Part shown: positions 4,576-4,917 of the stretch, piece after piece
Numbering within the stretch: the first letter of the stretch is position 1
How the letters are laid out: the number at the start of each line of letters is the position of its first letter
Source of the DNA: a virus
Taxonomy: Duplodnaviria; Heunggongvirae; Uroviricota; Caudoviricetes
Direction: 5' to 3' (one strand)
IMG/VR virus record: IMGVR_UViG_2619619134_000005
Length of the DNA stretch: 22,047 nucleotides
The notes under the pieces: generated by a model
What the model saw: only the letters and a program-made list of their open reading frames with translations
Told to the model about the DNA's origin: nothing
Databases searched by the model: none
Program-made: the position numbers and the translations under genes

Positions 4576-4678
4576 ACAGCCTTCCCCTGAATAAATTAAC
4601 CGCCACTTGCCATTCCGTACAGAAGTCGGATATCCTTCGCCCGAAAAGCATGAAACACATTTCTGCCATGCTAAAGAG

Positions 4679-4708
4679 AAACCCCGGTATCAGCAGATAC
4701 CGGGGTTT
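4679..4708. terminator. strong bidirectional hairpin in the I-J intergenic spacer
   Basis: Perfect inverted repeat AAACCCCGGTATC-AGCA-GATACCGGGGTTT (13-bp stem, 4-nt loop) with pyrimidine/T-rich tracts on both sides (TTTTCTTTC on plus; TTTCTCTTT on minus). Confidence 0.5.
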
Positions 4709-4780
4709 TCTTTCATGCCCACCGATAATCCTGTTGGTTAAAACCGGTAATGGCATAAAAATTCTGAATATCTTCACATT

Positions 4781-4808
4781 TTCACACACTGACTGTGGCG
4801 CTTATAAT
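4781..4808 (+). promoter_or_regulatory. sigma70-like promoter candidate (TTCACA-N16-TATAAT) pointing antisense to the tail operon
   Basis: -35-like TTCACA at 4781-4786, 16-nt spacer, perfect TATAAT at 4803-4808 on the plus strand inside the non-coding I-J spacer. A weak hairpin plus T7 lies ~80 nt downstream (4889-4913). Purely motif-based. Confidence 0.25.
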
Positions 4809-4917
4809 TTCGCTGCGTTAGTGTTTTTTTGCCCGAGTAACAAAAACAACTCCTTAACATTGATCTTCATTTGTCTGTCCCCACAGCTCCGCGATCACTG
4901 CGGGATTTTTTTATGTT

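Follow-up and report, generated by a model that had tools for sequence, protein, structure and literature searches.

Lambda-type phages keep the genes for tail assembly protein I and tip attachment protein J close together, with a spacer of 59–60 nt (60 nt in lambda itself). In the phage DNA analysed here (IMG/VR record IMGVR_UViG_2619619134_000005, a stretch of 22,047 nt called the window below), the same two genes are separated by 342 nt (4576–4917) that the list of open reading frames (ORFs) shows as non-coding. What is this additional DNA, and how does it relate to the tail operon in which it lies? An earlier note, made from the sequence alone, had set this spacer against ~60 bp in lambda, and had suggested that it could be a small-RNA moron with a plus-strand transcript of ~90 nt, antisense to the tail operon. 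The J start at 4575, the I stop at 4918 and the lambda distance bear out the first statement, and the second agrees with a Northern-confirmed RNA of near-identical sequence. Sequence comparison identifies the extra I–J DNA as the gene of PasB, an Hfq-dependent sRNA known from lambdoid prophages of E. coli. The sRNA at the I–J junction is real, yet it had already been described.

Organization of the I–J spacer

The features of the spacer are collected in Table 1. Very probably, and this applies to the two-module explanation as a whole, the 342 nt are made up of an I-proximal module of 166 nt (4752–4917), which carries the PasB sequence, and a J-proximal (left) module of 176 nt (4576–4751). The extra DNA lies between genes that are adjacent in related phages (342 against 59–60 nt), and its cargo is enclosed by a promoter and a terminator of its own, both predicted from sequence, as in a moron in the sense of Juhala and Hendrix. 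The three elements singled out in the earlier note, a hairpin, a TTCACA-N16-TATAAT element and a hairpin followed by T7, were each found in place.

Table 1. Positions in the window of the I–J spacer features and of the flanking tail genes
Feature	Position	Strand	Details
Tip attachment / host specificity protein J gene	1102–4575	−	ORF; Pfam GpJ domains PF24421, PF24801, PF12421 and others
Left module	4576–4751	−	J leader; SD GGGGAAGG at ~4580–4587, hairpin and 43 nt beyond
Weak promoter-like match TTGCCA-N18-TATCCT	4607–4636	+	9/12, chance level (3 found, 0.9 expected)
Perfect hairpin, 4-nt loop	4679–4708	both, T-tailed	Arms 4679–4691 and 4696–4708, 13 nt, 100% complementary
CRP-like palindrome AATTCTGAATATCTTCACATTT	4760–4781	+	2 mismatches to AAATGTGAnnnnnnTCACATTT
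Predicted sigma-70 type PasB promoter	4781–4808	+	−35 TTCACA 4781–4786, 16-nt spacer, −10 TATAAT 4803–4808
22-codon ORF MKINVKELFLLLGQKNTNAAKL	4802–4870	−	ORF list; GGGGA Shine-Dalgarno-like
PasB sRNA, 83 nt	4830–4912	+	Coordinates transferred from E2348/69, NC_011601 1466343→1466261
PasB intrinsic terminator	4880–4912	+	Family stem CCCGCAG 4880–4886 / CTGCGGG 4898–4904, U7 4906–4912
Tail assembly protein I gene	4918–5598	−	ORF list; Pfam PF06805 Lambda_tail_I, E = 1.8e-16

A scan of the window for tRNAs found none, and a covariance-model scan of the whole window against Rfam 15, which has no PasB entry, gave 0 matches at the gathering score. The best sub-threshold match (27.3 bits against a threshold of 48) was to an unrelated Streptococcus sRNA and, like the other sub-threshold matches, was due to the generic shape of the 13-bp hairpin. 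AgvB and AsxR gave no Rfam match in the window either, and identity with these RNAs was rejected, as they sit at the PR' moron site.

PasB and its copy in the window

PasB (pathogenicity-associated sRNA B) was discovered by RIL-seq and confirmed by Northern analysis in EPEC E2348/69 (Pearl Mizrahi et al. 2021, PMC8550237). Its gene, for an RNA of 83 nt, lies in prophage PP6 between J and the gene of a tail assembly protein and is transcribed against both, with the directionality given as '(> <) >' (Table S6, PMC8550237). Its Northern band had the predicted size, and the RNA was destabilised without Hfq, with log2FC values of −6.8 and −2.4 in the hfq mutant (PMC8550237). RIL-seq gave 37 unique partners, of which 30 were CDS or 5'UTR, and PasB, with its U-tract of 7, was the second RNA of the chimera in 99–100% of fragments (PMC8550237). 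The literature gives neither a physiological role nor a validated target for PasB.

When aligned with the E2348/69 gene, 4830–4912 of the window was identical at 81 of 83 bases without indels, and the published Northern probe AATCCCGCAGTGATCGCGGAGCT matched 4885–4907 of the minus strand exactly. The two copies share the promoter region and the terminator arms, and both are antisense to the two tail genes, for a tail assembly protein and for J, between which they lie; the 3' end of PasB in the window lies 6 nt from the I stop codon. Within the RNA, the window copy differs by a C-to-A change at RNA position 27 (4856) and a G-to-A change at position 54 (4883). According to Zhu, Shabalina and Storz 2026 (bioRxiv 10.64898/2026.05.13.724894), the former change also sets the variant PasB-2 apart from PasB. 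Towards J the two spacers carry different modules, of 176 nt in the window and of ~75 nt in E2348/69. Expression, size, Hfq dependence and RNA partners have been published for the E2348/69 copy.

A second set of published RNAs appears to belong to the same family. EcOnc22, EcOnc23 and EcOnc24 of E. coli O157:H7 Sakai represent an Hfq-crosslinked RNA of ~85 nt, which loses stability when Hfq is absent (Tree et al. 2014, PMC4104026). We mapped them to the I–J spacers of Sp15, Sp14 and Sp11, antisense to the tail operon; these spacers rank 40th, 48th and 49th among the most Hfq-crosslinked intergenic regions (PMC4104026). The Sakai crosslink peak falls on the PasB equivalent after a coordinate shift between genome versions of +139..143, a value measured at one other locus (AgvB). 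The three loci share with the window the CRP-like site, the position of the −10 site, an AUCUU motif and the terminator arms, whereas the modules as a whole are ~73–81% identical and differ in their 5' part. Judged by sequence and position, EcOnc22/23/24 are divergent homologues of PasB. We found no passage linking the two in the papers cited here, and the bioRxiv paper of 2026 never uses the term 'EcOnc'. Two other Sakai candidates, EcOnc33 and EcOnc54, are not at I–J junctions.

Predicted promoter and CRP-like site

The TTCACA-N16-TATAAT element noticed earlier stands up well as a candidate sigma-70 promoter. It matches the consensus at 11 of 12 positions and is the only site in the 22-kb window with one mismatch or fewer, where 0.01 such sites would be expected by chance. 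Across 30 unique variants of the module, A2, T3, A5 and T6 of the −10 site are invariant. A primary transcript from this TATAAT would start at ~4815 and be ~98 nt long, while the published, coverage-based 5' end corresponds to 4830 and gives the 83-nt RNA. The transcript predicted in the earlier note agrees with PasB in its size of ~90 nt and in its end at the terminator; its start near 4815 is the one expected from the TATAAT and differs from the published 5' end.

Immediately upstream lies a palindrome that matches 14 of the 16 specified bases of the 22-bp CRP consensus, which contains TGTGA-N6-TCACA. No other such site is present in the window (0.05 expected by chance). Its half-sites, TCTGA and TCACA, are invariant across the 30 variants, with changes confined to the 6 bp between them and to the outer flank on the 5' side, making it the best-conserved block of the entire locus. 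This pattern suggests that 4760–4781 is a regulator binding site. Its centre, 4770.5, would be at −44.5 relative to the predicted start at 4815, or at about −60 relative to the published 5' end (4830/4831). CRP sites of class II promoters are centred near −41.5, and those of class I promoters near −61.5 and further helical turns upstream. The distance from the CRP-like site to the −10 site is 32.5 bp, 3 bp longer than the canonical class II spacing. PasB was more abundant after overnight growth in LB than in Dulbecco's medium, a comparison in which growth phase differs as well (PMC8550237). This difference is the sole and indirect hint that PasB may be controlled by cAMP–CRP.

Predicted terminator of the window copy

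On the plus strand, the terminator scan called a stem at 4888–4904 followed by T7 at 4906–4912, at the place of the PasB-family terminator. The earlier note had described a weak hairpin here, and weak it is, with a folding energy of −7.3 kcal/mol in the window copy against −12.6 kcal/mol for the family consensus. The difference of ~5 kcal/mol goes with the A that replaces G at 4883 and gives an A·C mismatch in the 7-bp family stem, so that a weaker stem (4888–4893/4899–4904) is predicted to form instead. The family stem is intact in 19 of 20 aligned variants and broken in the window copy only. This allele is rare: the exact 60-mer occurs in just 4 of 5426 E. coli genomes. Since the change costs 5 kcal/mol, the A4883 copy might allow read-through, or might yield a less stable RNA.

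Among the aligned PasB variants, the terminator arms are invariant and the loop varies in sequence and length. Covariation analysis with RNAalifold found the terminator stem alone, and because its arms are invariant the analysis offers no covariation evidence either way. Folding of the 5' part of PasB was no better than that of shuffled sequence.

The hairpin upstream of J

The perfect 13-bp hairpin that the earlier note had described, with U-tracts on both strands, was recovered with fully complementary arms and with T-rich tails (TTTTCTTTC on the plus strand, TTTCTCTTT on the minus strand). Both strands fold at −27 kcal/mol, with z-scores of −7.6 and −6.1, and 0 of 200 shuffled sequences were as stable. 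A strict terminator scan called neither strand, because part of each T-run pairs with an A-run. We take the hairpin to be a putative intrinsic-terminator-like element of the late operon strand, placed just upstream of J. Neither the promoter scan nor inspection by eye revealed a divergent promoter on the operon strand whose transcripts would end at the hairpin.

The hairpin had been taken as part of the insertion. It is present, but separate from the sRNA unit and not specific to the insertion, since lambda and other relatives carry a hairpin at the same position. In lambda, the I–J spacer has AAACCGCC-TGCG-GGCGGTTT followed by TGTCATTTAT, a few tens of nt ahead of the J start; like the window hairpin, it is GC-rich, has a T-rich tail on the operon strand and precedes J. 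In sequence the two are unrelated; the window hairpin has the longer stem (13 bp), looks terminator-like on both strands, and is ~100 nt upstream of the J ribosome binding site, as compared to ~20 nt for lambda. All lambda-type spacers have AAACCGCC-loop-GGCGGTTT and then a T-rich tail, and this hairpin is kept in 80 of 80 lambda-type loci with changes in the loop only. Short-spacer relatives have CAGGCA[C/T]CC...GG[G/A]TGCCTG followed by T4–6, with one compensatory change from C–G to T–A. Both the lambda and the short-spacer hairpins are terminator-like on the operon strand only. Because unrelated terminator-like hairpins precede J in these phages, the PasB cassette lies between the I stop and an older feature. 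A pre-J hairpin is not universal, as sodC-type spacers (below) have no operon-strand terminator before J.

The left module around the window hairpin is nearly invariant, and other PasB-bearing phages have a different leader of 75–105 nt in its place (78 of 80 IMG/VR loci mapped). In the phage collection all its copies were at least 99% identical, and no relative below 99% that might show its origin was found. The only self-match of the module on the opposite strand is the hairpin itself.

Relatives and other cargo at the I–J junction

For comparison we used 80 IMG/VR loci with this I protein, from 78 of which spacers could be extracted. All 78 spacers carry a PasB module beside the I stop, at roughly 70–100% identity. 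In a wider search, about a third of the complete E. coli genomes (1809 of 5426) proved to have a member of the PasB family, with as many as 11 copies in one genome, and no feature was annotated at the PasB positions among the matches listed from these searches. A species scan with the promoter block added only E. albertii, apart from contamination-like short contigs in unrelated assemblies and chance matches.

Eleven of these 78 loci also have sodC, encoding a Cu,Zn superoxide dismutase, at the same site and antisense to the tail operon. Downstream of this prophage sodC moron come a core resembling PasB and the terminator of PasB. Unlike the window, these loci have protein-coding cargo with its own terminator and lack both the CRP-like site and the promoter of PasB. 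No sodC is present in the window, and its spacer shows no similarity to that gene.

PasB may also be compared with the anti-sRNAs AgvB and AsxR and with PasA, PasC and PasD. Like PasB, these are Hfq-dependent cargo sRNAs of lambdoid prophages of pathogenic E. coli and are expressed in lysogens. Unlike PasB, they are located downstream of Q/PR' near the lysis genes and not in the tail operon. They have no sequence similarity to PasB, and their distribution is independent of that of PasB.

Proposed function of the two modules

We propose that 4752–4917 is a self-contained sRNA moron, consisting of a CRP-like site, a near-consensus sigma-70 promoter, the PasB sequence of 83–98 nt and a Rho-independent terminator with U7. 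In the lysogen, PasB would be transcribed by host RNA polymerase, antisense to the tail operon. Hfq would bind and stabilise it, and the RNA would act in trans by pairing with dozens of mRNAs, both host and accessory. Two short motifs ahead of the terminator, ACUCC and UUAAUCUUC, which are conserved and single-stranded, would probably do the pairing. We take the left module, 4576–4751, to be the J leader; its strong hairpin would correspond to the pre-J hairpin of lambda and other relatives. In the prophage state this hairpin would stop unmodified RNA polymerase before J, and during lytic growth Q-modified polymerase would presumably read through it.

Could PasB instead act mainly in cis? It might pair with late mRNA after the I stop and so lead to RNase III cleavage or silencing of leaky lysogen transcripts, or transcription collision might set the I:J ratio. 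The geometry gives full complementarity to the late transcript, and in every one of the 78 extracted loci the gene has this antisense placement at the junction, 6 nt from the I stop. However, the body of the RNA keeps conserved sequence islands, whereas a role as antisense only needs no particular sequence, and the 37 trans partners together with the position as second RNA in nearly all chimeras are the signature of a trans-acting sRNA. The RNA also has no special complementarity to the J leader, as 219 of 300 shuffled sequences did as well. We consider a mainly cis-acting PasB unlikely. A broader scheme would make PasB a cAMP–CRP switch in the tail operon, acting in trans via Hfq and in cis as antisense to leaky I–J transcripts. 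Together with the hairpin it would silence J and the cargo beyond it (lom and others) until both are overrun by Q-modified polymerase, and the invariant left module may further encode a second sRNA ending at the hairpin. In this extended form the scheme is distinctly unlikely. The second sRNA taken by itself, a plus-strand RNA of ~70 nt running from TTGCCA-N18-TATCCT to the hairpin in tandem with PasB, is speculative and improbable. The promoter-like site is there, the plus strand has its T-rich tail after the hairpin, and 4640–4718 folds as a 5' stem plus a terminator hairpin (−32 kcal/mol). Against this, the promoter match of 9/12 is at chance level, the related hairpins of lambda and the short-spacer class are terminator-like on the other strand only, and no RNA from the left module has been published. 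Comparison of relatives gives no information on this promoter-like site because the left module does not vary.

The earlier note had named an attenuator of J dosage as the alternative to a moron. The hairpin itself might tune the dosage of J, either as a partial attenuator even for Q-modified polymerase, or as a barrier to 3'-exonucleases or a processing site between I and J. J is needed in few copies per virion, three non-homologous hairpins share the place before J, and their stems are conserved (with one compensatory change) while the loops vary. Q-modified polymerase, as known for lambda Q, reads through intrinsic terminators, and sodC-type spacers do without such a hairpin; both count against tuning of J dosage, which we regard as rather unlikely. 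Two readings of the spacer as coding DNA have far less to recommend them. The earlier note had pointed to the 22-codon minus-strand ORF, which with its GGGGA is overlapped by PasB and might thus form a small protein gene with an antisense partner in the manner of a type I toxin–antitoxin system. The ORF is indeed present in the window, but it is not conserved across 79 loci: the ATG is found in 36 and missing in 43, and where it is found the peptides have 17, 22, 31, 39 or 41 residues with frameshifted, unrelated C-termini. The window peptide is not hydrophobic, and the promoter scan found no operon-strand promoter for it. On this sequence evidence we judge the ORF not to be a gene, and the toxin–antitoxin reading, which we rejected, is barely credible. 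That the spacer is the decayed coding sequence of a lost gene, as the complete sodC at the same site in some relatives might suggest, is also very improbable: the window spacer has no sodC similarity and no conserved ORF, its promoter and its terminator are both conserved, and experiments have demonstrated a discrete RNA from homologues.

The preferred reading, a PasB moron beside a J leader with its own hairpin, has several consequences. A real regulatory RNA gene could be recovered from raw sequence alone, and it is one that genome annotation still omits. The PasB family would extend well beyond the near-identical variants catalogued to date, and would include EcOnc22–24 of Sakai. The CRP-like site upstream of the promoter provides a testable hypothesis on the regulation of PasB. 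The I–J junction emerges as a recurrent cargo site, occupied by PasB or by sodC with a PasB remnant, and a terminator-like hairpin before J emerges as a conserved feature of lambda-type tail operons. The overall picture of prophage sRNAs is unchanged by these findings. The new points at this locus are minor ones, namely the CRP-like site at 4760–4781, the rare G-to-A change at 4883 and the sodC cargo at the I–J site of related phages.

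The tail operon and its I-J spacer

Assignment of the genes by Pfam showed that the minus strand of the window carries a lambda-like tail operon. The I stop and the J start are separated by 342 nt in the window and by 60 nt in lambda, the latter measurement agreeing with the roughly 60 bp given in the earlier note. Directly downstream of J, as in lambda, lies a full-length gene for an Ail/Lom outer-membrane protein, a second lysogen-expressed cargo gene of the operon.

Coordinates of the tail operon genes and of the elements in the I-J spacer
Feature	Position	Strand	Basis
Lom	435-1034	-	Pfam, E = 1.6e-124
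Tip attachment protein J	1102-4575	-	Pfam
Left module	4576-4751		
Weak promoter-like site	4607-4636	+	
5' stem, 13-bp hairpin and U-rich tail	4640-4718	+	
Arms of 13-bp hairpin	4679-4691 / 4696-4708		
CRP-like site	4760-4781		
TTCACA-N16-TATAAT	4781-4808	+	
TAGTGT	4819-4824		
PasB	4830-4912	+	
PasB Northern probe	4885-4907	-	
Tail assembly protein I	4918-5598	-	Pfam
K (JAB + NlpC/P60)	overlapping 5496-6500	-	Pfam
L	6250-6948	-	Pfam
M	6948-7289	-	Pfam
Tape measure	7282-10524	-	Pfam

The I-proximal element is the sRNA PasB

The spacer had been read as a possible antisense small-RNA moron, and this was correct: the predicted transcript of about 90 nt is the known Hfq-dependent sRNA PasB. An Rfam search gave no match at the gathering score and no feature was annotated in the spacer among the listed matches in E. 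coli genomes; the identification came from the literature. PasB, listed in a RIL-seq study of EPEC E2348/69, is an 83 nt RNA from the minus strand of NC_011601 (1466343->1466261, prophage PP6), encoded between E2348C_1436 and E2348C_1437 and antisense to both (PMC8550237, Table S6). RefSeq names these neighbours 'tail assembly protein' and 'phage attachment tail tip protein J'. The PasB Northern probe, AATCCCGCAGTGATCGCGGAGCT (PMC8550237, Table S6), matches the minus strand of the window exactly, placing the RNA on the plus strand. Furthermore, the window and E2348/69 spacers are nearly identical from ~4752 to 4917 and align without indels, which fixes the limits of PasB in the window. Two differences fall within it, C to A at position 27 (4856), where PasB and its variant PasB-2 are stated to differ (bioRxiv 10.64898/2026.05.13.724894), and G to A at position 54 (4883). 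The right-hand element of the spacer is thus an already published sRNA.

PasB gives a Northern band of the expected size and its stability is Hfq-dependent, mutation of hfq giving log2 fold changes of -6.8 and -2.4; RIL-seq found 37 unique partners (30 of them CDS or 5'UTR). Chimeric fragments numbered 258 for Dulbecco's medium and 1,820 for overnight LB, PasB being the second RNA of the chimera in 99-100% of fragments (PMC8550237).

The other elements noted around PasB were also found at the positions given. The TTCACA-N16-TATAAT element matches the promoter consensus at 11/12 positions and is the sole site with at most one mismatch in 22 kb (0.01 expected by chance), and 4912 is the last base of a short hairpin plus T7. 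The 22-codon ORF is likewise present on the minus strand, but was rejected as a gene on conservation: the ATG is absent in 43 of 79 loci, and loci that have it give products of 17-41 aa with unrelated C-termini. Our additions to the published account of PasB are modest: the link to EcOnc22-24 and a wider family, an invariant CRP-like site, a rare terminator mutation, a sodC alternative at the I-J site, and a terminator-like hairpin whose position before J is conserved.

Family and distribution

The window was compared with 80 IMG/VR loci having the same I protein (94-99% identity), from 78 of which the spacer could be extracted. A PasB-like module directly follows the I stop in all 78, with about 70% to 100% identity to the window. 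The family includes the Sakai sRNAs EcOnc22/23/24. Their sites lie in the 240-nt I-J spacers of Sp15, Sp14 and Sp11, on the strand opposite the operon. They give an ~85-nt band that is destabilised without Hfq, and the three spacers rank 40th, 48th and 49th among the most Hfq-crosslinked intergenic regions (Tree et al. 2014, PMC4104026). The coordinates of that study refer to an older genome version, and its supplementary table is offset from NC_002695.2 by about +139 to +143 nt at 1.94 Mb, a shift measured at AgvB only; mapping the EcOnc peak onto NC_002695.2 requires this correction, after which the peak falls inside the PasB-equivalent RNA. No text linking EcOnc22-24 to PasB was found in the papers examined, and 'EcOnc' is absent from bioRxiv 10.64898/2026.05.13.724894.

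Sensitive BLAST detected the family in 1809 of 5426 complete E. coli genomes, with a maximum of 11 members per genome. When one genome per species was scanned, the only carriers were E. albertii and short contaminant-like contigs, in agreement with the published restriction of PasB to Escherichia and Shigella. Three comparison loci (L091, L093 and L096) come from non-enteric assemblies, those of Asaia platycodi, Parendozoicomonas haliclonae and Streptomyces flavalbus; these contigs of 460-3408 nt carry an E. coli prophage I-J spacer with 73-97% identity to the window modules, and most probably represent contamination with DNA of E. coli or a phage.

Promoter, CRP-like site and 5' end

At the PasB -10 site, A2, T3, A5 and T6 are kept in all 30 unique variants; the -35 site diverges, as does the promoter spacer. 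Conservation along the RNA body is moderate except for two short islands, ACUCC and UUAAUCUUC (AUCUU invariant), in the unstructured stretch upstream of the terminator; the proposed seed lies in this same single-stranded region (bioRxiv 10.64898/2026.05.13.724894). The most conserved block of the whole locus, AATTCTGAATATCTTCACATTT, is upstream of the promoter. It has two mismatches to the 22-bp CRP consensus and is unique in the window (0.05 expected). Both half-sites are invariant and variation is confined to the central 6 bp and the outer 5' flank, a pattern that would be expected of a dimeric regulator's binding site. The absence of indels between this site and the -10 shows that the spacing is fixed. 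The geometry is ambiguous: a start at 4815 would put the centre of the site at -44.5, and the published 5' end would put it at about -60. PasB is more abundant in overnight LB than in Dulbecco's medium (PMC8550237), which fits catabolite control and equally fits growth-phase effects. We infer that PasB may be under CRP control. The site is absent from the PasB literature examined, and the word 'promoter' occurs 0 times in bioRxiv 10.64898/2026.05.13.724894.

The TATAAT element predicts a start at ~4815, where G4815 and C4816 are invariant, and an RNA of ~98 nt. Read coverage and Northern size gave the published 5' end, which is equivalent to 4830 in the window (PMC8550237). TAGTGT, with conserved TA...T, could provide an alternative start at ~4831, and the discrepancy may reflect either processing or a second start site.

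A rare terminator allele

Across the family, the window stem excepted, neither the terminator arms CCCGCAG/CTGCGGG nor the U-tract changes, and the loop varies in sequence and in length (11-17 nt). In the window, 4883 is A where the family has G, which disrupts the fourth pair of the 7-bp stem (1 of 20 aligned variants) and accounts for the weak look of the hairpin in the earlier note. An alternative, weaker stem can still form (-7.3 versus -12.6 kcal/mol for the consensus), and the allele is predicted to make the terminator leakier in the strain carrying the window. The exact 60-mer with A4883 occurs in 4 of 5426 complete E. coli genomes, including strain Res13-Lact-PEA14-20, which has a spacer with 100% identity to that of the window.

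Three spacer types and the hairpin before J

The 176 nt adjoining J form a left module, separate from the PasB module, that contains the 13-bp hairpin. Of the 78 loci, 30 have this module, which is practically invariant, and no divergent relatives were found in the phage collection. In its place are an unrelated 75-105-nt leader (37 loci) or ~700 nt with sodC (11 loci); I and the J N-terminus are 96-100% identical across all three types.

The sodC-type spacers (~848 nt; L054:2182-3035, also L003, L055, L057, L058, L065) carry a complete Cu,Zn superoxide dismutase gene that is transcribed antisense to the tail operon and has a terminator of its own, GGTAAGGGGCGGGCCCCTTACC then TTTATT. A PasB-like core and PasB terminator follow, without the PasB promoter and CRP-like site; here PasB may survive as a relic or may belong to the 3' region of sodC.

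The 13-bp inverted repeat is perfect, with a 4-nt loop and a stability of -27 kcal/mol (z about -6 to -8 versus shuffled, both strands); its 'bidirectional' look is due to flanking A and T runs. The short leaders have CAGGCA[C/T]CC-loop-GG[G/A]TGCCTG on the operon strand, then T4-6, with one pair showing a C-G to T-A compensatory change. Lambda-type spacers (59-60 nt) have AAACCGCC-(TGCG/TCCG/TCAG)-GGCGGTTT and then a T-rich tail in 80/80 loci. Three unrelated hairpins with T-runs thus occur immediately before J, all in the orientation of the late-operon strand, and the window hairpin is the third version of this element. This older hairpin and the I stop flank the PasB cassette. In lambda and the 80 lambda-type loci (L082:746-805, L099-L178) the hairpin is of 8 bp, varies only in its loop, and is separated from the J ribosome binding site by 20 nt; we know of no function described for it.

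The pre-J hairpin would halt unmodified polymerase in the prophage state and be read through by Q-modified polymerase; alternatively, it may act as an attenuator or as an RNA-stability element. The sodC-type spacers have no such hairpin before J. A promoter scan found no operon-strand promoter from which a divergent RNA could run to the hairpin as its terminator. On the plus strand, the 5' stem followed by the hairpin and its U-rich tail has the shape of an sRNA gene in tandem to PasB. An RNA of ~70 nt running from the weak promoter-like site to the hairpin is disfavoured, the promoter match being at chance level; the module offers no variation to compare.

No special complementarity of PasB to the J leader was found. 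In one short-spacer locus (L071) the J leader carries the heptamer CAGACAT four times in tandem (ATTCAGACATCAGACATCAGACATCAGACAGG); other short-spacer loci have two copies, which indicates a small repeat expansion in L071 just upstream of the J ribosome binding site.
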